Assembly (NCBI GenBank): GCA_025451275.1
Contig: JANWKR010000040.1
Location: forward strand, 118-64,117
Length of the DNA: 64,000 nt
Source of the DNA: Steroidobacteraceae bacterium
GTDB lineage: Bacteria > Pseudomonadota > Gammaproteobacteria > Steroidobacterales > Steroidobacteraceae
Direction: 5' to 3'
Made by a program: the position numbers and the translations under genes. Below the pieces are notes generated by a model. It worked only from the letters and a program-made list of their open reading frames with translations, did no database searches and was not told the DNA's origin. Of this stretch, positions 13,423 to 53,560 are shown piece by piece. Within the stretch, counting starts at the first letter, position 1; every line of letters begins with the position of its first letter.

Positions 13423-13564
13423 TTAAGAACTCCCCAGCGTGCCCGTGTGCAACTCCTTCGGGGAGCCATTCCTCGAGTTTCGAATTATCGTTCGCGGACG
13501 TGATCGAGTCGAAGGCTGATACAGCGTTTTATAAGTATAATTTAGTGTAACAAAAACAATCAAT

Positions 13565-13604: not shown

Positions 13605-13670
13605 AGCCTGGGAGGCGCTATCGTCTGGTGCTCTATACTCTGTGGACCGAATACCGCCGTGGTTGACAGC

Positions 13671-14390: not shown

Positions 14391-14408
14391 GACGATTTGC
14401 GGGGCCAC

Positions 14409-15344: not shown

Positions 15345-16472
15345 ATGCTGCACGAATTCCTTACGACCAACCGAGATGCCCTGGTCGAACGGTGTCGACT
15401 CAAGGTCGCGAAGCGGTTGGCACCCAAGGTTACCGATGCGGAGCTGACCCATGGAATACCGGCTTTCCTGGATCAGGTGATTAAGACGCTCCAGGTCGAG
15501 CAGACCGCCGAGCCCCTACGCAGCCGCAGGGTCTCAGGGCCGGCCGGAGGCGCGCCGGCCATGTCCGAGATAGGCACGACTGCGGCGCTGCATGGGCGAG
15601 AGTTATCCATGCAGGGGTTCACAGTTGAACAGGTCGTTCACGACTACGGCGATCTCTGTCAGGCGATAACTGATCTCGCATGTGAACACAGCGCTCCGAT
15701 TGAGATAGACGAGTTTCGAACTCTCAACCGCTGTCTCGACAATGGAATCGCCGATGCAGTGACCGAATACGCGTTTCAGCGGAATTCCCTGGTGGAGGAC
15801 ATCGGTGTAAAGGCCTTGAACGAAAGGCTAGGATTTCTCGCGCACGAACTGAGAAACCATCTCCACGTAGCGACTCTTGCCGTTATTGCCATCCGAGCAG
15901 GCAACGTCGGGGCGGCCGGCGCAACGGGTGCGGTGCTGGACCGCTCCCTGATCGGGATGCGGAGTCTCATAGATCGCTCCCTGGCCGATGTGCGAGTAGC
16001 AGCGGGAATGCTTCCTCGACGCCAACTGGTGTCGCTCGCCGATTTCGTTTCCGACGTAAAGATATCGGCCTCACTCGAGTCAAACTCGCGAGGATGCGTC
16101 TTTACAGCCGGTGCGGTTGACTCGGAGCTTGCGCTCGATGTTGACCGGGAAATGCTCCTTTCCGCAGTTGGAAACCTGCTGCAAAATGGTTTTAAGTTCA
16201 CACTGCCGAACACGGAAGTTCTATTGAGCGCCTACGCCGTCGGCGATCGAATCCGGATTGAGGTCGAAGACCATTGTGGCGGCCTTCCACTTGGTATGGA
16301 CAACCTATTTCCGTCGTTCAAGCAGCGCGGCAAGGACAGGTCCGGCCTTGGACTCGGCCTCTCAATCTGTCGACGCAGCGTTGAGGCGAACAATGGAGTG
16401 CTCAGGGTCCGCGACATCGCGGGCTCAGGCTGTGTTTTCACGATTGACCTGCCCCGGCACACACTGCCGTAA
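15345..16472 (+). CDS. Cytoplasmic sensor histidine kinase (RsbRD-N-like N-terminal domain + HisKA + HATPase_c), orphan
   Basis: 375 aa with no TM segment. H-box FLAHELRNHL, N-box NLLQNGFKF, G-boxes DHCGGLP and GLGLGLSI. The N-terminus MLHEFLTTNRDALVERCRLKV resembles RsbRD_N-type helical sensors. No response regulator in the window. Confidence 0.85.
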   Translation: MLHEFLTTNRDALVERCRLKVAKRLAPKVTDAELTHGIPAFLDQVIKTLQVEQTAEPLRSRRVSGPAGGAPAMSEIGTTAALHGRELSMQGFTVEQVVHDYGDLCQAITDLACEHSAPIEIDEFRTLNRCLDNGIADAVTEYAFQRNSLVEDIGVKALNERLGFLAHELRNHLHVATLAVIAIRAGNVGAAGATGAVLDRSLIGMRSLIDRSLADVRVAAGMLPRRQLVSLADFVSDVKISASLESNSRGCVFTAGAVDSELALDVDREMLLSAVGNLLQNGFKFTLPNTEVLLSAYAVGDRIRIEVEDHCGGLPLGMDNLFPSFKQRGKDRSGLGLGLSICRRSVEANNGVLRVRDIAGSGCVFTIDLPRHTLP

Positions 16473-16879
16473 CACCTCGAAGTCCCGGACGTGGATGCTA
16501 GGCGCGCTCGGTTGTTAACCGACCTGTCACGAGCGTCCTAGCCTATCGTCGCTCCCGCATCGGCGTCACGGCAGCCGACGGACGCAGCTCCGGGCCCGCC
16601 TCCTCGCTCTATCGCGCAGGGTTAGCCGTTTTGAATAGTCGATGCGCGGAGCCGCATCTAGGACGGCTTGCCGGTCGCAGGAAAACCTAGCCCAAGCCTC
16701 AGCCGGCGCGGCTGACCACCCGTGCCGCTGTCGTCGATGTATACGTGGAGCATGTGGGCGCTCTATGGTCTTGGCCGTCCCAGGGCCCAGTTCACGGTTC
16801 TGACGGACTTGCTAATGGACTTGCTCAGGCCCAGCCTGACGCGTTTGCGGCCAAATTCACCTGTAAGTCATTGAGTTAA

Positions 16880-16955
16880 TGGTGCCGGGAATAGGATTCG
16901 AACCTACGACCCGCGCATTACGAATGCGCTGCTCTACCAGCTGAGCTATCCCGGC
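16880..16955 (-). tRNA. tRNA-Thr (anticodon CGU)
   Basis: 76 nt: GCCGGGA-TA-GCTC-AGCTGGTA-GAGC-A-GCGCA-TTCGTAA-TGCGC-GGGTC-GTAGG-TTCGAAT-CCTAT-TCCCGGC-A-CCA. This folds by hand into a full cloverleaf, with anticodon-loop positions 34-36 = CGT. Confidence 0.92.
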
Positions 16956-23062: not shown

Positions 23063-25018
23063 CTAGGCGAGCTTGCTCTGCAGGTGCTGGGCGAGCTCGG
23101 CGATAGTCGGGAAGTCGAACAGCTCGGTCAGATCCACCCGGCCGGGATATTCCTTGTCGATCTGCTCGTGGATCTCGATGAGCTTCAGTGAGCTGGCGCC
23201 GATCTCGAACAGGTTGTCGTGCACGCCGACGCGCTTGCCCTCGAGGGCGGTGTCGCAGATGTTCTTGAGCTTCTCCTCGATCGCGGTGCGCGAGCCGGGC
23301 TCGGGTGCACGCTGCGCGGCGCGCAGCGCCGCGAGCTCTGCGAGCTCGGCGGCAAACTCGCCGTCGACGTAGCCGTCCTCCAGCAGGTGACGCTGGATCT
23401 TGCCGCTGGTGGTCTTGGGGATGCGCTTCACCGGCACGACGTCCGCGACCTCGAGCCCGGACTGCTCGTTCACGAGGCGCGCCACCTGCGCGGCGAGCGG
23501 CAGGAACTCCTCCATGGCGCCGCGGTGCAGTACGAACACCACCAGCTGCTCGGCGTCGCCGCCGCGCGGCCGCACGCCCGCGGCGACCACCTTGCCGAGC
23601 TCGAGACCCGGAGCGCGCTGCGCGATGGCCTCGAGGTCGTGCGGGTAGTAGTTCTGGCCGTTGACGAAAATGATCTCCTTGGCGCGCCCGGAGACGAACA
23701 GGTCACCGGCGTGCATCAGCCCCAGGTCGCCGGTGCGCAGCCAGCCGTCGGCGGTGAGTGCGGCGGCGTTGGCCGCCGGGTCCTCGTAGTAGCCGCGCGT
23801 GACGTTGTCACCGCGGATGTGCACGTGCCCGATGCGCTCGGCAGGCAGTTCGCGGTCCGTCTCGTCCGCGATGCGCACCCGGCAGTAGGGGATGGCCCGT
23901 CCCTCGGACACGAGGCGCACCGCGTCGCGGTCCGCCGCGTCGACGAGCTCCACCGCGCTGCCGGCGCTCATGCGGTGGCGGTTGAGCGCGATGGTCTTGA
24001 GGGGCGCGCCCAGCGGCGGAAAGCTCACGGCGAGCGAGGCCTCGGCGAGCCCATACACCGGGTACATGGCGTTGCGGTTGAGCCGCGCCGGCGCGAGCCG
24101 CGTCAGGAATTCGTCGCACAGCTCCACCGAGATCGGCTCGGCACCGTTGAAGATGAGGCGCACGGCCGACAGATCCAGTGCCTCGACCGGACGCTCGCCG
24201 AGCACCTTGAGGTAGTGCTTGTAGCCGAAGTTGGGCGAGCACAGGATGCTGGCGCGGATGCGCGCGGCGAAGGTGAGCCACAGCAGCGGGCGGCGCACGA
24301 ACAGCTCGGTCGGCATCAGGTGCGCGTGCACGCGGTTGGCGAACATGATCAGGTGGAAGCCGATGAGGCCCATGTCGTGGGTCAGGGGCATCCACGACAG
24401 GCTCACGTCACGCTCGGAGAAGCCCGCCACCTCGGTGGCGCCGTAGCAGTTGGCGAGGATGTTGCGGTGCGTGAGCACCACGCCCTTCGGCTCGCTGGTC
24501 GAGCCGGAGGAGAACTGGATGAAGGCGGTGTCGTCGGGCGCGACGCGCTGCACTTCGCCGGCGCGCGAGATGTCGTCGAGGTCATCGACCAGGAACACGC
24601 GCCGGCGCAGGCCCTCGTAGACCTCGCTCTCGCCGGCCTGTGCGGCGAAGCTGCCGATGCGCTCGAGCGAGCGCCGCTCGGTGTACAGGTACGGCTTGCC
24701 GAGGCGGCGCGCGATGCGCAGCAGCTTGTGGCGATGCTCGTCGCTGATCCCGAGCGCCACCGGCACCGGCACGATGCCGCCGAGGATGGCGGCCCAGAAC
24801 ACGTCGATGAACTGCTCGTTGTTGTTCAGGAACAGGATCAGCTTGTCGCCGCGCCGCGCGCCGAGCTTCTGCAGGTGATGCAGGATGCCGAGCGCGCGCT
24901 CGTAGAGTTCGGCGAACGACACCTCGCGGCTGTCGTTCTCACCCTCGAGGTAGGTGAGGGCGCGCGGCGCGGAGCGGTTGCCGGTGATGACTTCCGTGAG
25001 GGTCGTGGCTTTGGACAT
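23063..25018 (-). CDS. Fatty acyl-AMP ligase (FAAL) fused to a C-terminal carrier-protein domain
   Basis: 651 aa. Adenylation cores FSSGSTSEPKGVVLTH, WLRTGDLG, and GRAKEIIFVNGQNYYPHDLE (FAAL-like). The C-terminal roughly 80 aa have a phosphopantetheine motif LFEIGASSLKLIEI. Confidence 0.85.
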   Translation of the reverse strand: MSKATTLTEVITGNRSAPRALTYLEGENDSREVSFAELYERALGILHHLQKLGARRGDKLILFLNNNEQFIDVFWAAILGGIVPVPVALGISDEHRHKLLRIARRLGKPYLYTERRSLERIGSFAAQAGESEVYEGLRRRVFLVDDLDDISRAGEVQRVAPDDTAFIQFSSGSTSEPKGVVLTHRNILANCYGATEVAGFSERDVSLSWMPLTHDMGLIGFHLIMFANRVHAHLMPTELFVRRPLLWLTFAARIRASILCSPNFGYKHYLKVLGERPVEALDLSAVRLIFNGAEPISVELCDEFLTRLAPARLNRNAMYPVYGLAEASLAVSFPPLGAPLKTIALNRHRMSAGSAVELVDAADRDAVRLVSEGRAIPYCRVRIADETDRELPAERIGHVHIRGDNVTRGYYEDPAANAAALTADGWLRTGDLGLMHAGDLFVSGRAKEIIFVNGQNYYPHDLEAIAQRAPGLELGKVVAAGVRPRGGDAEQLVVFVLHRGAMEEFLPLAAQVARLVNEQSGLEVADVVPVKRIPKTTSGKIQRHLLEDGYVDGEFAAELAELAALRAAQRAPEPGSRTAIEEKLKNICDTALEGKRVGVHDNLFEIGASSLKLIEIHEQIDKEYPGRVDLTELFDFPTIAELAQHLQSKLA

Positions 25019-26328
25019 CAGCGGCGTTCCAGCCTCATGTGCAGCGGATGGCGCGTGCGCAGGTTGATCTGCGCCTCGAGCTCGAGGGGTTGGTCGGGTA
25101 CGTAGGCGAGCCGGTAGCGGCGCGCCACCATGTACAGGTGCATGAGCATTTCGTAGAGCGCGAAGGTCTCGCCGATGCAGTGCCGCGGGCCGGCGGCAAA
25201 GGGCATGTAGGCGAAGCGCGGCCGTTCGGCCTCGTGCTCCGGGCCGAAGCGCTCCGGCCAGAACCGCTCGGGCTCCTTCCAGAAGGCCGGGTGCCGGTGC
25301 AGCAGGTACAGCGGCAGCAGCACGTTGGTCTTGGGCGGCACCGGGAAGCCTCCCAGCACGTCCGCCTCGATGGTGCGGCGCGACAGCAGCCAGCCGGGCG
25401 GGTACAGGCGCAGCGCCTCGTCGATCACCTGGCGCGTGTAGGTGAGTGCCTCCATCTGCTCCAGACCTGGGGCGGCCAGCGGCGCTGCGGCATCGAGCTC
25501 GGCGTGCAGGCGCGCCTCGGCCTCGGGGTGCTGCGACAGCAGGTACCAGGTCCAGTTGAGCCCGCTGGCGGTGGTCTCGTGGCCGGCCACGATGAGGGTC
25601 ATGACCTCGTCGATCAGCTCGCGCTCGCCCATGGGCTCGCCGGTCTCCTTGTCGCGCGCGCTCATCAGCATGGCGACGTAGTCGAAGTGCTCCTCGGGCT
25701 CGGCACGGCGCCGCGCGACCAGCCTGGCCACCAGCTTGGTGAGCTGGCGGAACTTGTAGGCGAACTGCAGATCACGCGACTGCTCCTTGGTCACCACCTC
25801 GAAGGGGTTGCCGCCGAGCTCGGCGCTCAGGCGGTCGAGATCGGTGCCGAAAATGGCGCGCAGCACGATGGTGAGGGTGAGCTCGCTCATCTCGTCGGTG
25901 AGATTGACCGACTCGCCGCGCCCGGCGAGGGTGTCCCAGCGCTCGAGGAAGCGCTCGTTGGCCCGGGCGATCACCCCGGCAAAGCCGGTGATGACGCGGC
26001 GGTGGAAGTAGGGCTGCATCATGTAGCGCTGGCGCTTCCACAGCTCCCCCTCGCTGGTCATGATGCCCTTGCCGAGCAGGATCTTGACGCGGTCGAGGCC
26101 GACGCCCTTGGTGTAGTTGCGGTGGTTGGAGACCAGCACCCGCTTCACGTCATCCGGGTGGTGGATGACATAGGTATAAGATCCGCGCGCGGGCACGAAC
26201 ACCCGGTAGGTGTCGCCATGGCGGGCGAACAACTCGATCATGCGCTCCAGGGAATCGTCCGTGGAGCCGATGTCGAACTGCTGCTCGGCCTCCGGGGGCC
26301 GGGGATTCGCGGATGCGGCGGCGGTCAT
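25018..26328 (-). CDS. Cytochrome P450 (CYP4/CYP102-like fatty-acid-hydroxylase type)
   Basis: 436 aa. I-helix LIVAGHETTASGL, EXXR (EALR in IDEALRLYPP), PERF (WPERFGPE) and heme loop FAAGPRHCIGETFA. Its stop overlaps the FAAL start (TGATG). Confidence 0.9.
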   Translation of the reverse strand: MTAAASANPRPPEAEQQFDIGSTDDSLERMIELFARHGDTYRVFVPARGSYTYVIHHPDDVKRVLVSNHRNYTKGVGLDRVKILLGKGIMTSEGELWKRQRYMMQPYFHRRVITGFAGVIARANERFLERWDTLAGRGESVNLTDEMSELTLTIVLRAIFGTDLDRLSAELGGNPFEVVTKEQSRDLQFAYKFRQLTKLVARLVARRRAEPEEHFDYVAMLMSARDKETGEPMGERELIDEVMTLIVAGHETTASGLNWTWYLLSQHPEAEARLHAELDAAAPLAAPGLEQMEALTYTRQVIDEALRLYPPGWLLSRRTIEADVLGGFPVPPKTNVLLPLYLLHRHPAFWKEPERFWPERFGPEHEAERPRFAYMPFAAGPRHCIGETFALYEMLMHLYMVARRYRLAYVPDQPLELEAQINLRTRHPLHMRLERR

Positions 26329-27210: not shown

Positions 27211-27419
27211 AGCAGGGCGTCCCCGGGGATTCTGTTAAGTCTCGCAAAGCTCTTCCGGAACATGGTCTTAGCTTGTGTTCCTGATCAAGTGTGCGAGAAT
27301 CCCCTGCAACCACTTGGAAAATAGCGGCGGCGAATCGTCCAGTCCGTGACGGTGTGATACGTAACGCCGGTGGTTTTTGAATACGCTGCGGCCAAGGGTT
27401 AGTGGGAGACTCGGGGCAC

Positions 27420-30098
27420 ATGACGACTCCGCCGCCGGAAAAGCCGGCGGAATTTACCGCTTCGGACATTCTTTCGGCTGACGCCTGGACCGGCCGGACT
27501 CCCAAACCCGTGCTCGGCATCGACGTCGTCTGCACCAAGATCGCGGTCGACTTCCAGAACATGCGCCGCGACTCCATGGACGAGTGCGTGCGGCGCAATC
27601 TCGAGCTGCTGCGCGGGGCTACCGGCTGCGACTGCACCTTCCTGGCCGTGCTCGACCCCGAGGATTCGACCTTCGCCGAGGTGCGCCTGGCGCGCGGCGC
27701 CTTCGCCCAGTGCCGCCCGGAAGGGCTGCAGGGCGTGGGCATGGAATCGTTCCCGTGGCTGAAGAGCCGCAACGAGCATCTGCGCCTCTCGGAGCTGCGC
27801 GACAGCGCCACGCCGCGCAAGGAGCAGGCGACGGAAGCCGCACGCCTGGCGGACCTGCAGATCGGCTCGGCGCTGTTCGTGGCGCTGCGCGTGCAGGACA
27901 AGCCCGCCGGGTTCCTGGCCCTCGCCCACACCCTGCCGCGCGGCGCCTGGGACGTGAACCTGCAGCTGCTGATGAAGCTGGTGGGCACCAGCCTCGCCAC
28001 CGGACTTGAGCGCATCCGCACCGAGACGCGCCTCGCCAAGCTCGAGGAGCGCACCAATCTGTTCCAGGCCGCCGCCAACGACGGCATGTGGGACTTCGAC
28101 GTCGAGAACAACGAGGTCTACTTCTCGCCGCGCTGGAAGGCCATGCTCGGCTACGGCGACGACGACATGCGCGGCTCGCCCGACTGGCGCAGCCTCGTGC
28201 ACCCGGACGATCTGACGCGCGTGCAGGCGGCGATCCGCGACCACGTCGCCGGCAAGACCCCGATCTTCGAGAGCACGCACCGCATGCGGCACCGCAACGG
28301 CGAGTGGCGCTGGGTCATCAGCCGCGCCACGGCGCGCGTCGACAAGCACGGGCGGCTGCTGCGCCTGGTGGGTGTCGAGCTCGATATCACCGAGCGCAAG
28401 CTGTACGAGGAGGCGCTGTTCCGCGAGAAGGAGAGCGCCCAGATCACCCTGCAGTCGATCGGCGACGGCGTCATCACGACCGATGCCAATTCCACGATCG
28501 ACTACATCAACCCGGTCGCCGAGGAGCTGACCGGCTGGCGGCTCGAGGACGCCATGGGGCGGCCGGTGGAGGAGATCTTCCGCGCCTTCCACGAGGAGAC
28601 CTGCGAGCCGCTCGAGAATCCGCTGACCGTGTCGATCCGCCGCATCCGCCCCATCAAGTCGGTGCGCCCGATGCTGCTCATCCGCCGCGACGGCAACGAG
28701 CTGTACGTCGAGAGCACCGCCGCCCCGATCCGCGACGGCTCCGGCCACGTGGCCGGCGGCGTGCTGGTGTTCCATGACGTGTCCGAGTCGCGCGAGCTCA
28801 ACCGCCGCCTCTCCTACCACGCCAGCCACGACCTGCTCACCGGGCTGGTCAACCGGCGCGAGTTCGAGAGCCGCCTGGAGCGGGCGCTGAAGAGCGCCAA
28901 GGCGCGCGAGGCGTCCTATGCGCTCGCCTACCTCGACATCGACCAGTTCAAGATCGTCAACGACAGCTGTGGCCACGGCGCCGGCGACGCACTGCTCGGC
29001 CAGGTCGGTGCGCTGCTCAAGTCCAAGGTGCGCTGGCGCGACACGCTCTCGCGCCTCGGCGGCGATGAGTTCGGCATCCTGCTCGAAAGCTGCTCGCTGG
29101 ATGAGGCGATGCGCACCGCCGAGACGCTGCGCGAGAGCGTGCGCAACTTCCGCTTCACCTGGGAAGACCGCGTGTTCCGCCTCGGCGCCAGCATCGGCGT
29201 GGTACCGATCACGCCCGACAACGAGGACGTGGCCGGCATCCTCTCGGCCGCCGACTCGGCCTGCGCCGCCGCCAAGGAGTCCGGCCGCAACCGCGTGCAC
29301 TCCTTCGCCGAGAACGACATCGAGCTCATGCGCCGCCGCAAGGAGATGCAGTGGGCGGCGCGCATCAACGCGGCGCTGGAAGAGGGGCGCTTCGAGCTGT
29401 TCCGCATGGCGATCCAGCCGCTGCAGCGGGTCGAGGTCGGCCAGCATTACGAGCTGCTGCTGCGCCTCAAGGACGAGACCGGGCGGATCGTCGCCCCCAA
29501 CGACTTCATCGCCGCGGCCGAGCGCTACGGCATCACCCCGGCGATCGACCGCTGGGTGATCGAGAACGCGTTCCGCTGGCTGGTGTCCGATTCCGACGAG
29601 CGCGAGAAGCTCGCGCAGTGCTCGATCAACCTCTCCGGGCAGAGCCTCGGCGATGACAAGTTCCTGCCGTTCGTCATCGAGCAGCTGCGCCACAGCGGCC
29701 TCGACGCGACCAAGATCTGCTTCGAGATCACCGAGACGGCCGCGGTGCAGAGCTACTCGCAGGCCAACCGCTTCATCCAGGCGCTGAAGGAGCAGGGCTG
29801 CAAGTTCGCGCTCGATGACTTCGGCACCGGCCTGTCCTCGTTCGGCTACCTCAAGCACTTCCCGGTCGACTTCCTCAAGATCGACGGCAGCTTCGTGCGC
29901 GAGATCCTCCGCGACCCGATCGACCGCGAGATGGTGCGCTCGATCAACGAGATCGGGCACCTGACCGGCAAGCAGACCATCGCGGAGTTCGCCGAGAACG
30001 CCGAGATCATCCAGATGCTCACCAGCCTCGGCGTCGACTACGCGCAGGGCTACGGCGTCGCCCAGCCGCAGCGCGTGGTGAAGTCAGCGGTTGCCTGA
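27420..30098 (+). CDS. GAF-PAS-PAS-GGDEF-EAL signalling protein (c-di-GMP turnover)
   Basis: About 892 aa. GGDEF intact (SRLGGDEFGILL) with an RxxD I-site (RWRD) 5 residues upstream. EAL domain with YELLLRL, QCSINLSG, FEITETA, ALDDFGTG, KIDGSF, EFAEN, QGY. No TM segment. GTG 27402 is an alternative start. Confidence 0.9.
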   Translation: MTTPPPEKPAEFTASDILSADAWTGRTPKPVLGIDVVCTKIAVDFQNMRRDSMDECVRRNLELLRGATGCDCTFLAVLDPEDSTFAEVRLARGAFAQCRPEGLQGVGMESFPWLKSRNEHLRLSELRDSATPRKEQATEAARLADLQIGSALFVALRVQDKPAGFLALAHTLPRGAWDVNLQLLMKLVGTSLATGLERIRTETRLAKLEERTNLFQAAANDGMWDFDVENNEVYFSPRWKAMLGYGDDDMRGSPDWRSLVHPDDLTRVQAAIRDHVAGKTPIFESTHRMRHRNGEWRWVISRATARVDKHGRLLRLVGVELDITERKLYEEALFREKESAQITLQSIGDGVITTDANSTIDYINPVAEELTGWRLEDAMGRPVEEIFRAFHEETCEPLENPLTVSIRRIRPIKSVRPMLLIRRDGNELYVESTAAPIRDGSGHVAGGVLVFHDVSESRELNRRLSYHASHDLLTGLVNRREFESRLERALKSAKAREASYALAYLDIDQFKIVNDSCGHGAGDALLGQVGALLKSKVRWRDTLSRLGGDEFGILLESCSLDEAMRTAETLRESVRNFRFTWEDRVFRLGASIGVVPITPDNEDVAGILSAADSACAAAKESGRNRVHSFAENDIELMRRRKEMQWAARINAALEEGRFELFRMAIQPLQRVEVGQHYELLLRLKDETGRIVAPNDFIAAAERYGITPAIDRWVIENAFRWLVSDSDEREKLAQCSINLSGQSLGDDKFLPFVIEQLRHSGLDATKICFEITETAAVQSYSQANRFIQALKEQGCKFALDDFGTGLSSFGYLKHFPVDFLKIDGSFVREILRDPIDREMVRSINEIGHLTGKQTIAEFAENAEIIQMLTSLGVDYAQGYGVAQPQRVVKSAVA

Positions 30099-45244: not shown

Positions 45245-47326
45245 TCAGCTGACCTTCATGCCGGGGGTGGCGCCGGCGTCAGCCGTCAGCAGGAACAGCC
45301 CCGGCGTCTCGCCGCTGGCCGCGAGCACCATGCCCTGCGAGACGCCGAATTTCATCTTGCGTGGCGCGAGGTTGGCGACCACCACCGTCAGTCGCCCCTT
45401 GAGTGCGGCCGGCTCGTAGGCTGACTTGATGCCGGCGAACACGGTGCGGGTATCCGAGCCGAGATCGAGCGTCAGCTTCAGCAGCTTGTCGGCTCCGGCG
45501 ACCGTCTCGGCCTCGACGATGCGGGCGACGCGCAGGTCGATGCGCTTGAACTCGTCGATGGAAATCTGCGCGACGGCGCCCGCAGCGGCCACCCCGGCCG
45601 GCGCAGCAGCGCTCGCGGCGCGCGGCACGGGCGGTGGCGCGGCGGGCGGCTCCGCCTCGAAGAGCGCATCGAGCATCTTGGCGTCGACGCGGGTCATCAG
45701 GTGCTGGTAGGGGTTGATGCGCTCGGGCAGGGAGGCGGCATCGCTCCAGGCGAAGCGGCGCTCGAGACCGAACAGCTCCAGCGCCACGTGCGCGGCCAGG
45801 TGCGGCAGCACCGGCGCCAGCAGCACCGACAGCAGCTTGAAGCCGTGCAGGGCGCGCGAGCACACGTCCTGCAGCTCCGCGGCGCGCGCCGGGTCCTTGG
45901 CCAGCACCCAGGGCTGGCGCGCGTCAAAGTCGTGATTGATGCGGTCGGCGAGTGCCATGATGTCGCGCATGGCCTTGCCGAACTCGCGGTTCTCGTAGGC
46001 CTGCTGCACCTGGAAGGCGTGGGCCGCGGCGAGTGCCGCCAGCTGTTCGGTGTCGCCCTGGTAGGCGAGCTGACCGTTGAAGTGGCGCGTGATGAAGCTC
46101 GCGGCGCGGCTGGCGATGTTGACGTACTTGCCGACCAGGTCGCTGTTGACGCGCGCCACGAAGTCGTCGGGGTTGAAGTCGAGGTCCTCGACGTTGGCAT
46201 TGAGCTTGGCGGCGAGGTAGTAGCGCAGCCACTCGGCGTTCATGCCGAGTTCCAGATAACGCAGCGGACTGATGCCGGTGCCGCGCGACTTGGACAGTTT
46301 CTCGCCCGAGACGGTGAGGAAGCCGTGCACATAGACGTGGTCCGGAACCTTGTACGGGGGACCTGCGAACTTGAGCATCGCCGGCCAGAACAGGTTGTGG
46401 AAGTAGATGATGTCCTTGCCGATGAAGTGGATCTGCTCGGTATCGGCCGCGGCCAGGAACTCCGTGAAGGTGCGTCGCTCGCCGTTGGCGCGTGCCTTGC
46501 CGCTGTCGAAGTAGCTCTGCAGCGCTGCGAGGTAGCCGATCGGCGCATCCAGCCACACGTAGAAGTACTTGCCGGGCGCATCCGGGATCGGGATACCGAA
46601 GTAGGGCGCATCGCGCGAGATGTCCCAGTCGCCGAGCGCCTGCTCGCCGCTGCCGGTGAGCCACTCGCGCGCCTTGTTGACGACCTGCGGCTGCAGCCGC
46701 CCGGGGGTATCGAGCCACTCCTTGAGAAACGCCACGCACTTCGGGTCCGACAGGCGGAAGAAGAAGTGCTCGGAGGCCTTCAGCACCGGCTGGGCGCCGC
46801 TGAGCGTCGAGTACGGGTTGATGAGGTCGGTCGGCGCATACACCGTGCTGCACACCTCGCACGCGTCCCCGTACTGATCGGGCGAGTGGCAGTTCGGACA
46901 CTCGCCCTTGATGTAGCGGTCGGCGAGGAACATGCCCTTGACCGGATCGTAGAACTGCTCGATCGACTTGCGGTACACCAGCCCGGCGGCGACCAGCCGC
47001 GCGTACACGTCCTGTGACAGCTGCGTGTTCTCGGGCGAGTCGGTCGAGTGCCAGTGATCGAAGCTGAGGTGAAAGCCCTCGAGATACGGGCGGCGGCCGG
47101 CGGCGATGCGCGTCACCAGCTGCTGCGGCGTCACGCCTTCGCTCTCGGCCTTGAGCATGATGGGCGCGCCATGCGCGTCGTCGGCGCACACGAAGTGCAG
47201 CTGGTGGCCCTGCATTCTCTGGAAGCGCACCCAGATGTCGGCCTGGATGTACTCCATGATGTGGCCGATGTGCAGCGGGCCGTTGGCGTAGGGCAGCGCC
47301 GTGGTGACGAAGATCTTGCGGGTCAT
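45245..47326 (-). CDS. metG: Methionine--tRNA ligase
   Basis: 693 aa. HIGH ([15 protein letters not shown]), KMSKS variant KLSKSRG, Zn knuckles [17 protein letters not shown], and a C-terminal tRNA-binding domain [11 protein letters not shown]...[10 protein letters not shown]. Confidence 0.95.
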
Positions 47327-47380: not shown

Positions 47381-48442
47381 TCAGCCGGCGTCGCGGTACT
47401 CCTCGAACTTGTTCTTGTTGATGGCCTTCTTGAAGGCCTCTTTACCGCTGATCTGGCGTTGATTGAGCAGCTGCTCGATGGCGGAGTCCATGGTGCGCAT
47501 GCCGAACGCCCCGCCGGCCTGCATGGTGTTCTCGAGCTGATCGAGCTTGCCCTGACGGATGAGGTTGGAGGCCGCCGGGGTGTTCACCAGGATCTCCAGC
47601 GCGGCGACGCGCCCCTGCTTGTCGGCGCGCTGCAGCAGCTGCTGCGAGACCACCCCGCGCAGCGAGGTCGAGAGCATGGTGCGCACGTGCGACTGCTTGT
47701 CGGACGGGAATACGTTGACCATGCGGTCCACGGTCTGGGCCGCGCCGTTGGTGTGCAGCGTGCCCATGACCAGAATGCCCATCTCGGCCGCGGTCACCGC
47801 GATGCTCATGGTCTCCAGGTCGCGCAACTCGCCCACCAGGATGACGTCCGGATCCTCGCGCAGGGCTGAGTGCAGCGCGGCCGCAAAGCTCTGGCTGTGC
47901 ACGCCGATCTCGCGCTGGCTGATGAGACAGTTCTTGCGCTCGTGCACGAACTCGATCGGATCCTCGACCGTGAGGATGTGGCCCTTCACGCGGCGGTTGA
48001 TGTCATCGATCATGGCCGCGAGCGTCGTCGACTTGCCCGAGCCGGTCTTGCCGGTCACCAGGATCAGGCCGTTGTTGGCGCGGGACATCTGCCGCACCGC
48101 CTCGGGCATCTTCAGATCATCGAGGGTCAGCGCCTTGGAAGGGATGGCGCGGAACACCGCCCCCATGCCGTTCAGCTGGCGCATGACGTTGACGCGGAAG
48201 CGGCCGCGGCCCTCGAGCGTGTAGGCGAAGTCGGCGCCGTCCTTGGCCTCGAAGCGTTCGAGCGCCGCCTTGGGCATGATCTCGTACAGCGCCTGCTTGA
48301 CGGCCTCGGCCGCCAGCTTGTCGGGCCTGAGCGCCGACAGGTCGCCGTACAGGCGTATGCGCGGCGGGTCGCCGGAGATGAAATGCAGGTCCGAGCCGCG
48401 CTTCTCCAGCACCTCGATCAGGAGTGAGTCGACCTGCGGCAT
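47381..48442 (-). CDS. PilT-family hexameric ATPase, paralogue B (variant His box)
   Basis: 353 aa. Walker A GKTGSGKST, Asp/Walker B DPDVILVGELRD. The His-box region reads AEMGILVMGTLHT. The AIRNLIRE-equivalent is AASNLIRQGK. Confidence 0.85.
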   Translation of the reverse strand: MPQVDSLLIEVLEKRGSDLHFISGDPPRIRLYGDLSALRPDKLAAEAVKQALYEIMPKAALERFEAKDGADFAYTLEGRGRFRVNVMRQLNGMGAVFRAIPSKALTLDDLKMPEAVRQMSRANNGLILVTGKTGSGKSTTLAAMIDDINRRVKGHILTVEDPIEFVHERKNCLISQREIGVHSQSFAAALHSALREDPDVILVGELRDLETMSIAVTAAEMGILVMGTLHTNGAAQTVDRMVNVFPSDKQSHVRTMLSTSLRGVVSQQLLQRADKQGRVAALEILVNTPAASNLIRQGKLDQLENTMQAGGAFGMRTMDSAIEQLLNQRQISGKEAFKKAINKNKFEEYRDAG

Positions 48443-48452
48443 GCGTGCGGCT

Positions 48453-49577
48453 TCAGGCGGCGGAGGAGTTGGTGGCCGGGCCCGGTGCGGAAGTGAGTTC
48501 CACCTTGGGCAGCATGCTGGTGTCGGTCACGAACTTCTGGAACTGGCGCTTCTCGCTGGCGTAGTTGTAGGCGTCGTCCGGATCGACGGTGCGCGCGGTG
48601 ATGGCTCCCATCAGCGCCTGGTCGAGCAGCTGCATGCCGAGATCGCGCCCCATCTGCAGCTGGCTCGGGATCTGGTGCGTCTGCTCGGTCTGGATCAGCT
48701 TGGCGATCGCCTTGGTCATCATGAGCACTTCGCAGATCGCCTTGCGGCCGTGGCCGTCGGGGGTCTTCACCAGCACCTGGGTGACCACCGCCAGCAGGCT
48801 CTGCGCCAGGAAGCTCTTGGTTTGCTCGCGCTCCTCGACCGGCAGTGCGTCGATGATGCGGTCGATGGTCTTGACCGCGCTGGTGGTATGCAGGGTGCCC
48901 AGCACCAGGTGGCCGGTCTCGGCTGCCGTCATGGCCATGGAGATGGTCTCGGCGTCGCGCAACTCGCCCACCAGGATGACGTCCGGGTCTTCACGCATCG
49001 CGGCGCGCACCCCTTCGGCGAAGCTCGGGATGTGCGTGCCGAGCTCGCGCTGGATGACCTGGCTGTTCTTGCTCGGATGCACGAACTCGATCGGGTCCTC
49101 GAGGCTGATGATGTTGAGGCGGCGCGTCGAGTTCAGGTGATCGATCATGGCCGCGAGCGTCGTCGACTTGCCGGTGCCGGTCGAGCCGGTGACGAGCACC
49201 ATGCCCTGGTGAAAGTCGCACAGCTTGGTGACCACGGCCGGCAGCGCCAGCTTCTCCAGCGTCGGCACGACCGAGGGAATGGCGCGGAACGTGGCCCCCA
49301 CCCCGGTGTCCTTGCGGTACACGTTGACGCGGAAGCGGCCGCCCTCGGAGGACACGTAGGAGAAGTCCAGGTCGTTGCCCTTGTTGAACACCTCGTTCTG
49401 GGAACGGGTGAGGATCTCGGCGATGTAGCCCTCGAGCTCCGGGGCACGCAGGTCGCGGAATTTGATGGGCAGCAGGTCGCCGTGCATGCGCAGCATCGGG
49501 GGCACCCCGACCGCCAGATGCACGTCCGAGCACCCCTGCTGGGTGCCCAGCTTCAAAAACGCGTCGATGCGCGCCAA
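48453..49577 (-). CDS. PilT-family hexameric ATPase, paralogue A (variant AIRNLIRE region, C-terminal tail)
   Basis: 374 aa. Walker A GSTGTGKST, DPDVILVGELRD, His box AETGHLVLGTLHT. The AIRNLIRE-equivalent reads AIAKLIQTEQ. There is an extra C-terminal tail ...FVTDTSMLPKVELTSAPGPATNSSAA. Confidence 0.85.
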   Translation of the reverse strand: MARIDAFLKLGTQQGCSDVHLAVGVPPMLRMHGDLLPIKFRDLRAPELEGYIAEILTRSQNEVFNKGNDLDFSYVSSEGGRFRVNVYRKDTGVGATFRAIPSVVPTLEKLALPAVVTKLCDFHQGMVLVTGSTGTGKSTTLAAMIDHLNSTRRLNIISLEDPIEFVHPSKNSQVIQRELGTHIPSFAEGVRAAMREDPDVILVGELRDAETISMAMTAAETGHLVLGTLHTTSAVKTIDRIIDALPVEEREQTKSFLAQSLLAVVTQVLVKTPDGHGRKAICEVLMMTKAIAKLIQTEQTHQIPSQLQMGRDLGMQLLDQALMGAITARTVDPDDAYNYASEKRQFQKFVTDTSMLPKVELTSAPGPATNSSAA

Positions 49578-49736
49578 GCGCCTGCTCCTGAGGGCATGGT
49601 CTATATCCCTGTTTAGCCGCTTCGGGGCTTTGCGATCAACAACTTGAGGTCGGAAATTTGACCTAACGCACGAACTTAAGCAAGGCGAAGGCTGGAGCGG
49701 GGCGATACGGCCCGGGCGGGCGGGCCGGGAGGACGG

Positions 49737-52211
49737 TCAGTTGCGGTAGCGCTCGAGCGCCTGGCTCAGTTCGTTCATGGTCTGGAAGCGCTTGTTCTTG
49801 TCGACCGCCATGGCCTTCATGACCAGATCCGACAGCCCCGGCGGCAGGTTCGGATTGACGTCCTGGGGGACACGGGCCTTGCCCTGCACGTGCTGGTACA
49901 TGACCGACATATGGTCGCCGCGCGAATACGGCGGCACGCCGGTCACCATCTCGTACAGCATCACCCCGAGGGCGTAGATGTCGGCGCGCTGGTCGACCTT
50001 CTTGCCGAGGATCTGCTCGGGGGCCATGTACTTCGGCGAGCCGATCACGTAGCCGGTCTTGGTGAGCTGCGTGTCGCCCTCGCGCTGCGCCGCCGCGACC
50101 CCGAAGTCCACGATCTTGAGCAGCCCCTCCTGATTGATGAGCACGTTGGCGGGCTTCAGGTCGCGGTGCACGATGCCCTGCTGGTGCGCCACGGTCATGC
50201 CGGTGCAGATGTCGATGCCGAACTGCACCGCGCGCTTGAGCTCGACCGGCTTCTCGTTGACGACCTCGCTGCCGAGGGTGTGCGAGGGGAAGTACTCCAT
50301 GGAGATGGCGTACAGGCCCTGGATGTAGAGGAAGTCGTAGATGCGGATGACGTTCTTGTGGGTGATCTTGCGCGAGTAACGCAGCTCGTGGACGAAGCGC
50401 TTCATCACCTCTTCGTCGCCGGACACGTTCGGATTCAGGAACTTGAGGATCAGCCGCTCATCGACGACCGTGTCCTCCATGAGCAGCACGGTGCCGAACG
50501 CGCCGCGGCCGATGCGATCGATGTACTTGTAGCGGCCCTCGATGATGTCGCCCGACTTGAGGGTCTGAATGTCGAGCCGCGCGGCGGCCTCGGCCTGGCG
50601 CACGGCCGCCGCGCGGTCCTGCTCGGAGATCACCTGGGTCTTGACGCCCACCTCGGGCGGCGCGGCGGCCTGCGGCGGCCGCACCCCCGCCTGCGCGGCG
50701 GCCGAGGCCGCGGCGGCCGGCGGCAGCGGCGTGGCGCTGATGCCGCCGGCGCTGCCGGACCCCAGCGCGGTGACGCCGGCCATGCGGTTGTCGAGCTCGC
50801 TGACCGCGGCCTGCGCCATGCGCGAGATGGTCTGGTCGGGCGAGGCCACCTGCGCCTGCAGCTCGTGGCGCACCTGCTCGGCGCGCTGCTCGTCCGCCAC
50901 GCGTGACAGGGCCTGGATGGCTTCGATGCGGATCTCGCGCTCCGGGCGCGCCACCAACGGCAGCAGCGTGTCGACCAGCTTGCTGTCGCCGAGCTTGCCG
51001 AGCGCGCGCACCACGATCGGGGCGGCCTTGCCGCTGGTCGGCGAGTGCAGCATCTCCATGAGGCGCGGCAGGGCGCGCTTGCTGCCGATCTCGGCCAGCG
51101 CGTCCACGGCGCGCTCGCTCACCCACCAGTCCGTGTCCTTGGTCGCCTGGATGAGCGAGTCGACGGCACGCTCGTCCTTGGTCTGGTTGAGGATCTCGAT
51201 GGCAGCGCGGCGGATGTCCTCGTCCTTGTCGCGCACCAGCTGCAGCACCGCGTCGATCACCTTCGGGCCGCCGATCTTGCCGAGCGCATCCGCGGCACGG
51301 CTGCGCACCCACCAGTCGCTGTCCTTGAGCGACTCGAGCAGGTACTTGACCGACTGGGGGTTGCCCACCTCGTTCAGCACCTCGACCGCGGCGCGGCGCG
51401 CGTTCTCGTTCTCGTCCTTGAGGATGTCGATCAGGTAGCGGATGGTCTCGGGGTGGTTGGCCTTGATGACCACGTCGATGGCGCGGTTGAGCACGTCGAT
51501 CTCGGGGTCGCGCAGCAGCGCGCATACCCGCTCGATGTCGATCGGCCCGTCCATGCGCTGCAGCGCCGAGAGCGTGGCGCCGCGGATCAGCTTGTTGGGG
51601 TCCTTCAGCAGCGCCTGCAGCGCGGTCTGCACCTCCGGGGTGTTGAAGCGCGCCAGGGTATTGATGATGTGCACGCGCGCGATCGGGTCCTTGCCCTGCA
51701 CGCGTCCGATGAGCTCGGGCACCGCGCTCTTGTCGGCGATCTCGGAGATGATGCGGAACAGCGCCGCCTTCTCGTTCGGCTCCTGGGTATAGGCGGCGTT
51801 GAGCAGCTCGCGTACCGTGAAGCGGGTCTTCTGCGCGGCGATGACCTCGAGGATCGTGGGCCGGGGGATACCCGGCGTGGCGAGTGCCTCGATCAGCATG
51901 TGGGCCGGGTAGTTGCGGCTGCTGGTGAGTGCCCAGGAGATGCCGGAGATCACCCGCGGGCTGCCCTCGACCAGGCCGCGCATGAACTGCGGGAAGGTCT
52001 TCTGGCTGACGAGGCTCGCCAGCACGTCCACGAACGCCATGGTGGCCGACTTGTCGGCGTCCGGCAGTGCGCCGAACACGGCTTCGATCGCGCCGGGACC
52101 GACCTCCTTCAGCCGCGCGATCGCCTTCTGCGTCGCCGGGCTGGACGGATCGGTCGCGGACCGGATCTCCGTCACCAGCCGGTCGGCACGCAAGTTCGTG
52201 AAAAAGCTCAT
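49737..52211 (-). CDS. HEAT-repeat protein fused to a C-terminal Hanks-type Ser/Thr protein kinase
   Basis: 824 aa. The N-terminal roughly 470 aa are HEAT/PBS-lyase-like repeats (e.g. DSDWWVRSRAADALGKIGGPKVIDAVLQLVRDKDEDIRRAAIEIL). An Ala/Pro linker follows. The kinase domain has GRGAFGTV, LILKFL (Lys), HRDLKPANVL, DFG and SPKYMAPE. No TM segment. Confidence 0.88.
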   Translation of the reverse strand: MSFFTNLRADRLVTEIRSATDPSSPATQKAIARLKEVGPGAIEAVFGALPDADKSATMAFVDVLASLVSQKTFPQFMRGLVEGSPRVISGISWALTSSRNYPAHMLIEALATPGIPRPTILEVIAAQKTRFTVRELLNAAYTQEPNEKAALFRIISEIADKSAVPELIGRVQGKDPIARVHIINTLARFNTPEVQTALQALLKDPNKLIRGATLSALQRMDGPIDIERVCALLRDPEIDVLNRAIDVVIKANHPETIRYLIDILKDENENARRAAVEVLNEVGNPQSVKYLLESLKDSDWWVRSRAADALGKIGGPKVIDAVLQLVRDKDEDIRRAAIEILNQTKDERAVDSLIQATKDTDWWVSERAVDALAEIGSKRALPRLMEMLHSPTSGKAAPIVVRALGKLGDSKLVDTLLPLVARPEREIRIEAIQALSRVADEQRAEQVRHELQAQVASPDQTISRMAQAAVSELDNRMAGVTALGSGSAGGISATPLPPAAAASAAAQAGVRPPQAAAPPEVGVKTQVISEQDRAAAVRQAEAAARLDIQTLKSGDIIEGRYKYIDRIGRGAFGTVLLMEDTVVDERLILKFLNPNVSGDEEVMKRFVHELRYSRKITHKNVIRIYDFLYIQGLYAISMEYFPSHTLGSEVVNEKPVELKRAVQFGIDICTGMTVAHQQGIVHRDLKPANVLINQEGLLKIVDFGVAAAQREGDTQLTKTGYVIGSPKYMAPEQILGKKVDQRADIYALGVMLYEMVTGVPPYSRGDHMSVMYQHVQGKARVPQDVNPNLPPGLSDLVMKAMAVDKNKRFQTMNELSQALERYRN

Positions 52212-52462
52212 TCAGCCTTTCCGTGGAGAGCCGCTGCTGCACGTCGCCGCCGCGCCCCCCGCGCCGGAGCACTATGCAAGGCAAGGGCGGAATCTGTCCG
52301 GGCCGGCGTCACGCGGCCGCGACCGCATAGTAAATAAGGAGCATCCGGCATTCGAACCCGCGGGATTATGCCATAGCCTTGAGCCGGGCCACGGAACGCG
52401 GCCGTGTGCGCGCCCGGCGCCCAACCTCTAGAATCTGTCTCCGGACACCCTGCGGTTTCAAC

Positions 52463-53560
52463 ATGATCCCCGAATCCTCCCTGGAGAGCGCGCGCGCCGC
52501 GCTCGATGCCTACGTCGACCCCTACCTCGGCCAGTCCCTGGCGGCGGTCCAGGCGGTGCGCGAGGTGCGCGCCGATGGCGGCGGCCTCACCGCGCGGATC
52601 GCGCTCGGCTACCCGGTGGGCGGCTACCTGGAGGAGCTCACGGCGGCACTGCGCGGGCAGCTGGCCGCGGCCGGCATCAGTGCGCCGCTCACCGTCCAGC
52701 TCGAGGCGGACATCCGCGCGCACGCCGTGCAGCGCAACCTCAGGCCGCTCGGGGAGATCGCCAATGTCGTGGCGGTGGCCTCGGGCAAGGGGGGCGTCGG
52801 GAAGTCGACCGTGGCGGTCAACCTGGCGCTCGCCTGGGCCATCCAGGGGGCGCGGGTGGGGCTGCTCGATGCCGACATCTACGGCCCGAGCCAGCCGCTC
52901 ATGCTGGGGCTCACCGGGCAGCGCCCGAGCTCTCCCGACGGCAAGCACCTGCGGCCGCTCGCCGCCCACGGGATCAGCGCCATGTCGATCGGTTTCCTGG
53001 TGGACGCCGAGCAGCCGATGGTCTGGCGCGGGCCGATGGTGACGCAGGCCCTGACCCAACTCCTGTCGGAGACGCAGTGGGGCGCGCTCGACTACCTGGT
53101 GGTCGACATGCCGCCGGGCACCGGCGACATCCAGCTCACGCTCGCGCAGCGCGTGCCGGTGGCCGGCGCGGTGATCGTCACCACTCCCCAGGACATCGCG
53201 CTCGCCGATGCACGCAAGGGCCTCAAGATGTTCGAGAAGGTGGCGGTGCCGGTGCTCGGCATCGTGGAGAACATGAGCGTGCACGTGTGCAGCAACTGCG
53301 GCCACAGCGAGCACATCTTCGGCGCCGGGGGCGGTGAGCGCATGGCGCGCGAGTACGGCGTGCGGCTGCTCGGCGAGCTGCCGCTCGATGCCCACATCCG
53401 CGAGGAGGCCGACGGCGGCCGCCCCACGGTGGTCGCCAGTCCCGACTCGCCGCGCGCCCGGCCGTATTTCGCGATGGCGCGGCGCACCGCCGGGGCACTG
53501 GCGGTGCGCGCCCGCGATCGCAGCGGCGTATTTCCCAAGATCGTGGTCGAAGAAAGCTGA
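52463..53560 (+). CDS. apbC: Fe-S cluster carrier ATPase (Mrp/ApbC/NBP35 family)
   Basis: About 365 aa from ATG 52463. N-terminal DUF59-like region, deviant Walker A VASGKGGVGKST, and CxxC in VCSNCGH. Confidence 0.92.
   Translation: MIPESSLESARAALDAYVDPYLGQSLAAVQAVREVRADGGGLTARIALGYPVGGYLEELTAALRGQLAAAGISAPLTVQLEADIRAHAVQRNLRPLGEIANVVAVASGKGGVGKSTVAVNLALAWAIQGARVGLLDADIYGPSQPLMLGLTGQRPSSPDGKHLRPLAAHGISAMSIGFLVDAEQPMVWRGPMVTQALTQLLSETQWGALDYLVVDMPPGTGDIQLTLAQRVPVAGAVIVTTPQDIALADARKGLKMFEKVAVPVLGIVENMSVHVCSNCGHSEHIFGAGGGERMAREYGVRLLGELPLDAHIREEADGGRPTVVASPDSPRARPYFAMARRTAGALAVRARDRSGVFPKIVVEES

Follow-up and report, generated by a model that had tools for sequence, protein, structure and literature searches.

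Between the divergent apbC and metG genes of the window, by which is meant the whole 64-kb stretch of DNA that was analysed, ORF calling places three minus-strand genes, encoding a kinase with HEAT repeats and two PilT-family ATPases that are referred to here as A and B (Table 1). The number of reading frames, their sizes, their strand and the gaps between them are, to the base, those first described. A and B are separated by 10 nt and B and metG by 54 nt, and within this latter gap neither sequence inspection nor a terminator scan found a terminator-like site. In all 11 of the apbC-type loci with enough sequence metG likewise lies 3′ of B. On the opposite flank the apbC ORF as called begins at 52379, and since homologues align only from around residue 22-29 of that ORF the start was placed at the ATG at 52463. 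With this start apbC and metG are about 5.1 kb apart and still divergent, as had been claimed; the two are indeed neighbours in E. coli K-12, where 131 bp separate mrp (apbC) from metG and the genes are likewise transcribed away from each other. The GC3 of the kinase, A and B genes (0.94-0.96) is similar to that of the flanking genes, and these genes are thus no recent import.

Table 1. Positions of the three genes, the parts of the kinase, the spacer and the flanking genes within the window.
Feature	Position	Strand	Details
metG (flank)	45245-47326	-	Pfam tRNA-synt_1g and tRNA_bind; same direction as B
PilT-family ATPase B	47381-48442	-	353 aa
PilT-family ATPase A	48453-49577	-	374 aa; TTG start; AGGAG 8 nt upstream
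Kinase-A spacer	49578-49736	-	159 nt
HEAT and Hanks Ser/Thr kinase	49737-52211	-	824 aa; ATG start
Kinase domain	49737-50552	-	residues 554-824
Ala/Pro-rich low-complexity linker		-	residues ~471-553
PBS/alphaRep-type HEAT repeats	~50802-52211	-	residues ~1-470
Kinase-apbC intergenic region	52212-52462		~250 nt
apbC/mrp (flank)	52463-53560	+	Pfam ParA/NUBPL; divergent from kinase

The kinase is a two-part protein in which Pfam recognises six HEAT_2 repeats and a Pkinase domain (residues 561-813, E-value 8.5e-50), with the HEAT part matching alphaRep proteins and the kinase part the PknB enzymes of S. aureus and M. tuberculosis. All the elements of a Hanks-type kinase are present, namely the Gly-rich loop, the VAIK Lys, the alpha-C Glu, HRDxKxxN, DFG, APE and the Arg of subdomain XI. 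Invariant among 38 homologues are GRGAFGTV, K590, E609, H682-R683-D684-K686-N689, D702-F703-G704, T717 of the activation loop, P731-E732 (APE) and R808. With every catalytic motif in place and its residues invariant, the kinase is predicted to be catalytically competent. Identity across the family is 53% in the kinase domain, 43% in the HEAT region and 16% in the linker. No TM-like segment is apparent (the maximum 19-residue hydropathy is 1.18), nor is there one by hydropathy in A or B, and all three proteins are accordingly classed as soluble, which for the kinase agrees with its earlier description as a soluble Hanks kinase with a large HEAT scaffold. It is in this respect that the kinase departs from the PknB/Stk1-type kinases, to which its catalytic domain is closest and whose catalytic motifs it shares: it has neither TM segment nor PASTA domains, and the sensor or scaffold is instead an N-terminal PBS/alphaRep-type HEAT solenoid of ~470 aa. 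Its score on the NF033483 model is 279 bits, under the cut-off of 450.

What kind of ATPases are A and B? Both align end to end with the PilT/PilU model TIGR01420 and exceed its curated cut-off of 319 bits (414 bits for A and 439 for B). The best solved match of A is the PilT of P. aeruginosa (317 bits, 47% identity), to which B scores 331 bits with 50% identity; the scores against PilU (9n32) are lower, at 240 and 270 bits respectively, such that neither protein is PilU-like. The two are 42% identical to each other in the window and about 44% when the A and B families are compared. Overall identity to the PilT of P. aeruginosa is 45-54% for A and B, and PilTs of different phyla share 54%. In a neighbour-joining tree with three references and no bootstrap, the PilTs of P. 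aeruginosa, G. metallireducens and A. aeolicus make up one clade, outside which A and B each form a clade of their own, B as sister to the solved PilTs and A further away.

The AIRNLIRE motif, a hallmark of functional PilT, is intact in neither protein. Window A has AIAKLIQT at this position, and its family has lost the two Arg residues as well as the Glu, and window B has AASNLIRQ, its family keeping A-x-x-N-x-I-R-[EQ] without the first Arg. Judged by these comparisons, A and B are bona fide members of the PilT family in clades distinct from the three solved PilTs. The term non-canonical, as originally applied to them, is thus apt with regard to those clades but not with regard to family membership. 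Public annotation has them as 'twitching motility protein PilT' or 'PilT/PilU family type 4a pilus ATPase'.

The two families also differ at their catalytic sites. In A, which carries a family-specific C-terminal tail, all catalytic motifs are canonical, with the Walker A Lys, Asp-box Glu, Walker B Glu, T220 and H222 kept in 54 of 54 sequences and H229 in 53. In the B family the Walker A Lys, Asp-box Glu and H229 are kept in 42/42 and the Walker B Glu in 41/42, but the His-box region is altered, with AAEMGILVMGTLHT in place of AAETGHLVFGTLHT in the window; none of the 42 sequences has the first His-box histidine, H222, all having I or V there, and in 32 of them T220 has become M. A role as proton shuttle across the closed subunit interface has been assigned to the counterpart of T220 (McCallum et al. 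2019). With H222 missing from every member and T220 from most, the B family lends itself to a natural test of the model in which PilT catalysis is proposed to involve a proton shuttle between subunits, and also of obligate cooperation between two motors.

The association of the kinase with these ATPases extends well beyond the window. In a sample of kinase loci whose full-length kinases fall into 57 groups when clustered at 90% identity and into 25 when clustered at 60%, an A-type ATPase directly follows the kinase in 66 of the 67 related loci with enough downstream sequence, and the order A then B is found in all 43 of the longer loci. The reverse test, in which the starting point was three A-type ATPases selected with no regard to the kinase, returned the same arrangement each time. 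Chance adjacency, the circumstance in which the original prediction would have failed, is therefore not the explanation of the linkage. The module is found in unrelated genomic contexts on contigs labelled Gammaproteobacteria, NC10/Methylomirabilis and Tectomicrobia, and a search of plasmids did not find it there. A orthologues are 62-65% identical in modules labelled Gammaproteobacteria, Proteobacteria, Methylomirabilis and Tectomicrobia, B orthologues are 54-58% identical across distant modules, and the pairwise divergences of the kinase, A and B are correlated (r 0.92-0.96). Taken at the level of sequence and gene order, the kinase, A and B form the core of a conserved and vertically inherited module with a fixed order. 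Synteny of the apbC-metG arrangement itself extends to relatives whose kinases are as little as 46% identical. In one relative, L082, the kinase stands between apbC and metG but the ATPases are absent, and thus the kinase can persist alone.

Most lineages, those on contigs labelled Gammaproteobacteria, NC10/Methylomirabilis and Tectomicrobia among them, have a larger module, which comprises a small DUF6812-like ORF as well as the kinase, A and B and in which the gene of the kinase overlaps that of A (median gap -1 nt). Its neighbours include an FHA-only protein, a PP2C, and FHA-GAF-HD-GYP, FHA-EAL or FHA-GAF-cyclase proteins. Among 147 flanking ORFs from 40 dereplicated loci, FHA domains occur in 29, PP2C in 9, GAF in 9, HD-GYP-type HD in 7, EAL in 2 and cyclase in 2, and the FHA-only protein comes after B in 18 of 24 loci. 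By their domains, the kinase and these partners together are predicted to write, erase and read phospho-threonine, in connection with the turnover of cyclic nucleotides. Within the 64 kb of the window there is no homologue of the FHA, PP2C or small-ORF proteins, and in its lineage these partners do not lie next to the trio. The module had been proposed as possibly self-contained, which is not entirely accurate: in most lineages the DUF6812-like ORF, FHA, PP2C and cyclic-nucleotide enzymes are added. The Steroidobacterales lineage of the window has a reduced trio that was relocated into the ancestral apbC-metG gap and acquired a new spacer of ~100-200 nt in front of A.

This spacer between the kinase and A is typically ~100-200 nt in the apbC-type lineage, with a median of 131 nt. 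In the window a GC hairpin, GGCCCG-N6-CGGGCC, lies 3′ of the kinase stop codon and is followed by a more AT-rich stretch with a motif, TTCGTGCGTTAnGTCAAAtTTcCG..TTGATC, that is common to the close relatives L001, L162 and L141/147/154/159. The spacer, in which an internal promoter or operator may lie, folds no better than its shuffles (z -0.15), has no match in Rfam and contains no sigma-70 consensus. As the junction is no longer coupled in the lineage of the window, the link between the kinase and A may be looser there.

As to the machine on which these ATPases might act, no pilus gene was found nearby, as the original prediction had stated for the 64 kb. Pfam searches of 53 ORFs of the window gave no type IV pilus family beyond the T2SSE matches that the two ATPases themselves produce, a tblastn search with A and B as queries found no other T2SSE ATPase in the window, and the prepilin motif G-F-T-L-I-E is absent from all six of its frames. 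Genes for pilB, pilC, pilM-Q or pilins occur neither in the window nor beside any module examined, and no pilus structural family recurs among the flanking ORFs of these loci. With no type IV pilus structural gene linked in any locus, a pilus as the target is assumed from family membership only. Literature searches found no published description of the module, which fits the claim that no system of this composition had been described, and the module may therefore represent a new way of controlling PilT-like motors.

The reading that we favour, at somewhat better than even confidence, is that the module is a pair of accessory PilT-like motors controlled by threonine phosphorylation, where we infer both the mechanism and the dependence on a pilus. 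In this scheme the HEAT solenoid would dock one or more ATPase hexamers and the kinase would phosphorylate itself and/or A and B on Thr, a mark that FHA partners, where present, would read. A and B would work as a pair, either as a mixed hexamer or as two cooperating hexamers in the manner of PilT and PilU, with B relying on A for efficient hydrolysis. Their most likely target would be a type IV filament machine encoded elsewhere, on which they could serve as conditionally engaged accessory retraction motors or as load sensors reporting to second-messenger signalling. Control of A and B by the kinase, the formation of a heterohexamer and an independence from pili, all of them raised at the outset, may each apply.

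There are precedents for parts of this scheme. The PilT/PilU pair of the type IVa pili of P. aeruginosa, V. cholerae and Neisseria also comprises two adjacent, co-directional genes for PilT-family hexameric ATPases above the TIGR01420 cut-off. PilU is reported to depend on PilT (PMC6762196, PMC6821130), and one of A and B may need the other in the same way. A and B differ from that pair in having their own clades, in a degenerate AIRNLIRE and, for B, in the loss of H222, and in always being preceded by the HEAT-Hanks kinase, usually with FHA and PP2C genes. Orphan PilT paralogues (MXAN_0415/6705/6706 of M. xanthus, PilT2 of Neisseria and PilT1-3 of Geobacter) resemble A and B in being encoded outside pil clusters, but the publications consulted on them report no association with a kinase, FHA or PP2C. 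In M. xanthus, MXAN_6705/6706 form an adjacent conserved pair, and MXAN_0415 and MXAN_6706 are associated with partial S-motility defects, deletion of MXAN_6706 giving a partial motility defect (PMC13584747). These paralogues are 58-66% identical to M. xanthus PilT (PMC13584747), and are thus closer to their own PilT than A and B are to that of P. aeruginosa.

The regulatory half of the scheme has its nearest counterpart in the H1-T6SS of P. aeruginosa. There a threonine-phosphorylation pathway made up of the PpkA kinase, the PppA PP2C phosphatase and Fha1 exerts post-translational control over a nanomachine dependent on a hexameric ATPase (ClpV/AAA+), and its genes lie together with those of the machine. 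The likeness, a Hanks kinase, PP2C and FHA protein encoded with an ATPase, applies to the wider family and not to the window. The machines are different, with ClpV/AAA+ in the one and the PilT family in the other; PpkA sits in the membrane and has a periplasmic domain, while the kinase of the module is soluble with a HEAT scaffold; and fusions to GAF-HD-GYP, EAL or cyclase domains are frequent among the FHA partners of the module.

It is possible, though on balance doubtful, that the module is instead an unrecognised signalling device independent of pili, spread across Gammaproteobacteria-, NC10- and Tectomicrobia-labelled contigs, in which A and B are cytoplasmic hexameric ATPases that phosphorylation on Thr gates and that are tied to the turnover of c-di-GMP/cNMP. 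They would serve as a motor or a mechanochemical switch for some target other than a pilus, or in signalling pure and simple, and the PilT fold would thereby have been recruited to another role. The constant absence of linked pilus genes would suit such a device, as would the recurrent signalling partners (FHA, PP2C, GAF-HD-GYP, EAL and cyclase), the degenerate AIRNLIRE of A, the missing first Arg of B, and the position of both outside the clade of the three solved PilTs. However, orphan paralogues away from pil clusters (PilU, PilT2 and those of M. xanthus) still act on type IV pili, A and B are well over the TIGR01420 cut-off with the whole PilT architecture kept, and the module encodes no alternative substrate or membrane partner.

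That A and B are simply the ordinary pilT and pilU of the organism, beside an unrelated kinase, is improbable. Their public annotation, their tandem co-directional arrangement and the identity of B to P. aeruginosa PilT, not much lower than that between PilTs of different phyla, would all agree with it. Against this, the kinase-A-B order is constant in the 43 longer loci, with overlapping genes; A and B fall in separate orthologous clades away from PilT and both match PilU worse than PilT, which upholds the view that the pair is unlike pilT/pilU; H222 is lost in every B; and the less PilT-like gene comes first, the reverse of P. aeruginosa, in which pilT precedes pilU. That the module is a PD-T4-6- or MADS-like system of defence against phage, with a Ser/Thr kinase at its base and the ATPases as effectors, is scarcely credible, since the matches of the kinase domain to the PD-T4-6 and mad6 models and the weak matches of the ATPases to mad8 span only the generic kinase domain or P-loop, the neighbourhood is housekeeping with native codon usage, the module is vertically co-inherited and syntenic across the whole clade, no defence or mobile genes recur beside it and it was not found on plasmids; membership of PD-T4-6 or MADS was rejected in the lack of any full-length system match or defence-island context.

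Two open questions in type IV filament biology are the role of orphan PilT paralogues and the means by which motors of the retraction type are turned on or off. In the module a specific PilT-like pair is joined to enzymes of c-di-GMP/cNMP metabolism and to a complete set for phospho-threonine signalling, namely kinase, PP2C and FHA readers. If the kinase does control the motors, this would be, as far as literature searches show, the first such control for PilT-family ATPases, and a parallel to the T6SS threonine-phosphorylation pathway. The annotation 'PilT, twitching motility' could meanwhile mislead the inference of piliation and motility from metagenomes in abundant soil and sediment lineages such as the Steroidobacterales; window A is 100% identical to a protein, P0428, labelled 'Steroidobacterales bacterium'.

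The kinase gene of the window and the two genes that follow it, encoding PilT-family ATPases referred to here as A and B, are three minus-strand open reading frames whose coordinates and gaps are exactly those of the original prediction, with 159 nt between the kinase and A and 10 nt between A and B. The genes around this module are housekeeping genes, the order being nth, an rnfB-like ferredoxin gene, metG, the module, apbC, dcd, DUF3108, purN and purM. Its description as an insertion between apbC and metG is sound, since mrp (apbC) and metG of E. coli K-12 are divergent neighbours separated by 131 bp. Homologues of ApbC align only from around residue 22-29, so that the real start of the gene is probably the downstream ATG, which gives a divergent kinase/apbC intergenic region of about 250 nt. 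The GC3 of the kinase, A and B genes (0.94-0.96) is the same as that of the flanks, which argues that they are native, and recent horizontal acquisition of the module is ruled out by codon usage together with synteny across relatives. Kinase homologues that are 84-96% identical bear the label of Steroidobacteraceae MAGs, and a protein labelled 'Steroidobacterales bacterium' matches A at 100% identity.

Coordinates and attributes of the features discussed within the window
Feature	Position	Strand	Remarks
Kinase gene	49737-52211	-	824 aa
Kinase-A spacer	49578-49736		GC hairpin directly 3' of kinase stop
ATPase A gene	48453-49577	-	374 aa; TTG start, AGGAG 8 nt upstream
ATPase B gene	47381-48442	-	353 aa
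metG	45245-47326	-	54 nt from B
apbC	likely start ATG 52463 (mechanical ORF start TTG 52379)	+	divergent from kinase; start from homologue alignments
Low-GC stretch	12400-16900		GC 0.54-0.63 vs ~0.68-0.73 in flanks
CRP-like regulator	13566-14390		within low-GC stretch
HATPase_c protein	15345-16472		within low-GC stretch
tRNA-Thr(CGT)	16880-16955		beside low-GC stretch

Is the adjacency of the kinase and the PilT-family genes meaningful? It is. Full-length, collinear HEAT-plus-kinase proteins of around 790-830 aa constitute a large family, which resolves into 57, 34 and 25 clusters at 90%, 70% and 60% identity. Their neighbourhoods were drawn from exact-protein look-ups, from a profile search of genome contigs and from a metagenome search. 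The genome-contig search, made with an alignment of the full-length kinase, keyed on generic kinase motifs and returned 77 unrelated kinases and three true relatives; the metagenome search used a HEAT-core alignment in its place. The proposed linkage to PilT-family genes holds in this material: an A-type ATPase is next after the kinase in 66 of the 67 loci where the sequence extends 300 nt or more beyond the kinase, and A is followed by B in all 43 loci where it extends 2400 nt or more. Conversely, all three A-type ATPases recovered by a profile search independent of the kinase lie in the order small ORF, kinase, A, B. Across 35 loci kinase, A and B diverge in step, their pairwise divergences correlating with r values of 0.92-0.96, from which it follows that the three are inherited as a unit, the ATPases being better conserved (median identity 64% for A and 60% for B) than the kinase (44%). 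These results support the conserved kinase-plus-two-ATPase module that had been suggested and widen it to a larger phospho-threonine module, whose core the window carries in relocated form.

A relative's locus, L082 (1-3801), at 49% kinase identity, has the order apbC, divergent from kinase then metG, with no ATPases between. As this locus falls within the window's clade it looks like a secondary loss of the ATPases, and it indicates that the kinase can persist alone at the apbC-metG site. Two other candidate exceptions were rejected, namely locus L136 (1-2521), where the HEAT region runs straight into the last two thirds of B through an internal deletion or a chimera, and P0390, an assembly riddled with indels. 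A 504-aa 'A' at L176 (8001-10190) is probably an artefact or a product of decay, as indels also break up other genes of that assembly, metG among them.

The module occurs in two forms. The full form, represented by 52 loci in varied genomic contexts, has the order small ORF of about 155 aa (with a weak match to DUF6812), kinase, A, B, and the kinase stop and A start overlap (median gap -1 nt), such that kinase and A are predicted to be translationally coupled in most lineages. An FHA-only protein of around 220 aa follows B in 18 of the 24 full-form loci with enough sequence, and among the divergent or nearby genes are those for PP2C and for FHA-GAF-HD-GYP-type, FHA-EAL or FHA-GAF-cyclase proteins. 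Phospho-threonine writers, erasers and readers are thus found fused or adjacent to cyclic-nucleotide enzymes. FHA (29) heads the families found in the 147 flanking ORFs of 40 dereplicated loci, ahead of NlpC/P60 (10), PP2C (9), GAF (9) and HD_5 (7), and the 25 most frequent families include none of type IV pili. Among the source labels of the full form, which as MAG labels could be mistaken, are Gammaproteobacteria, Granulosicoccaceae, Ca. Methylomirabilis/NC10 and Ca. Tectomicrobia. One module contig (L086, GCA_975955295.1; GC 0.45) is labelled Kaarinaea lacus, a Nostocales cyanobacterium; its kinase groups in the same family as those of the other loci, and the contig could be a contaminant from a non-axenic culture. 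In one lineage (L172 1-3941; L168 3424-6944; L093-L110) the module adjoins pel exopolysaccharide genes, encoding PelD_GGDEF, a glycosyltransferase and PelG, and in several loci NlpC/P60 and PBP1b-like genes recur beside it.

The reduced form, with 30 loci including the window, consists of dcd and apbC divergent from kinase, A, B and metG, with neither the small ORF nor the FHA gene adjoining, and extends down to 46% kinase identity. Homologues of the small ORF, of PP2C and of the FHA-only and FHA-GAF-HD-GYP proteins are absent from all 64 kb of the window. The A proteins of the reduced form make up one clade, suggesting that the module moved into the mrp-metG intergenic region just once. Only this apbC-metG lineage has a spacer between kinase and A (median 131 nt), and the window and its close relatives (L001, L162, L141, L147, L154 and L159) have in common the spacer motif TTCGTGCGTTAnGTCAAAtTTcCG..TTGATC, a possible internal promoter or operator element. 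The spacer does not fold better than shuffled sequences, the region has no Rfam match at E up to 1, and a promoter and terminator scan gave no sigma-70 consensus and no convincing terminator.

What kind of ATPases, then, are A and B? Public annotation names both simply PilT. Against the curated cut-off of 319 bits for TIGR01420 (PilT/PilU), B scores 439 and A 414 bits, and the best match of both is P. aeruginosa PilT (B 331, A 317 bits), with PilU weaker (B 270, A 240 bits). Window A and B are 42% identical to each other, the value for A against B as families being about 44%, and the orthologues of distant modules are 62-65% identical to window A and 54-58% to window B. In a neighbour-joining tree without support values A is monophyletic, B is monophyletic bar one divergent sequence, and three solved PilTs (P. 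aeruginosa, G. metallireducens and A. aeolicus) group apart, as the sister clade of B. Identity is not decisive here, B being 50% identical to P. aeruginosa PilT as against 53-54% among PilTs of different phyla. A and B represent a dedicated, co-inherited ATPase pair.

Both families retain the Walker A Lys, the Asp-box Glu, the Walker B Glu, the gamma-phosphate His (H229) and R239. The A family retains AAETGHLVLGTLHT and the B family has AAEMGILVM-TLHT, with H222 replaced by I or V in 42/42 sequences and T220 by M in 32/42; AIRNLIRE is shortened in B to A-x-x-N-x-I-R-[EQ] and mostly lost in A. Within the closed interface the T220-equivalent of the neighbouring subunit is assigned a proton-shuttle role (McCallum et al. 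2019), and a ring of B only may for this reason be a poor ATPase, which is one ground for suspecting that A and B work together.

The kinase combines six HEAT_2 matches over residues ~30-470, akin to alphaRep/PBS-type 31-residue repeats, with a Pkinase domain (561-813) akin to PknB/Stk1. All the Hanks catalytic motifs are present and invariant across 38 homologues, including the activation-loop T717 and K590, the Lys whose mutation had been proposed. The protein is predicted from these motifs to be catalytically competent and, as it has no TM-like segment, soluble.

Within such a module the HEAT solenoid would recruit the ATPase ring or rings, threonine phosphorylation of the kinase and/or of A and B would set the activity or engagement of the pair, and the FHA partners may read this mark and adjust c-di-GMP/cNMP. 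Most simply, the target would be a type IV filament machine encoded elsewhere, by analogy with PilU, PilT2 and the M. xanthus paralogues. A role independent of pili stays a serious rival to this, because the loci offer no link between the module and pili. A defence system is rejected, the PADLOC matches being to generic domains only. A search for plasmid-borne copies in cultured strains gave generic HEAT proteins only.

The module comes nearest in kind to the PilT/PilU tandem and to orphan PilT paralogues, and it has a functional analogue in the PpkA/PppA/Fha1 threonine-phosphorylation pathway of the T6SS. What sets it apart from all of them is the combination of a HEAT-Hanks kinase with two distinct PilT-family clades, together with the altered His box of B. 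No description of it was found in the literature on PilT with HEAT repeat, Hanks/threonine kinase, FHA or PP2C, nor was any publication found on DUF6812 or any literature linking Steroidobacter to T4P. The module is of clear interest for both type IV filaments and bacterial Ser/Thr signalling.

Elsewhere in the window, the low-GC stretch may be an island integrated at tRNA-Thr(CGT). At 23063-26328 and 27402-30098 lie an AMP-binding/PP-binding protein then a cytochrome P450, which could form a small pair for secondary metabolism or lipid modification, and a GAF-PAS-GGDEF-EAL protein 17 kb from the module.
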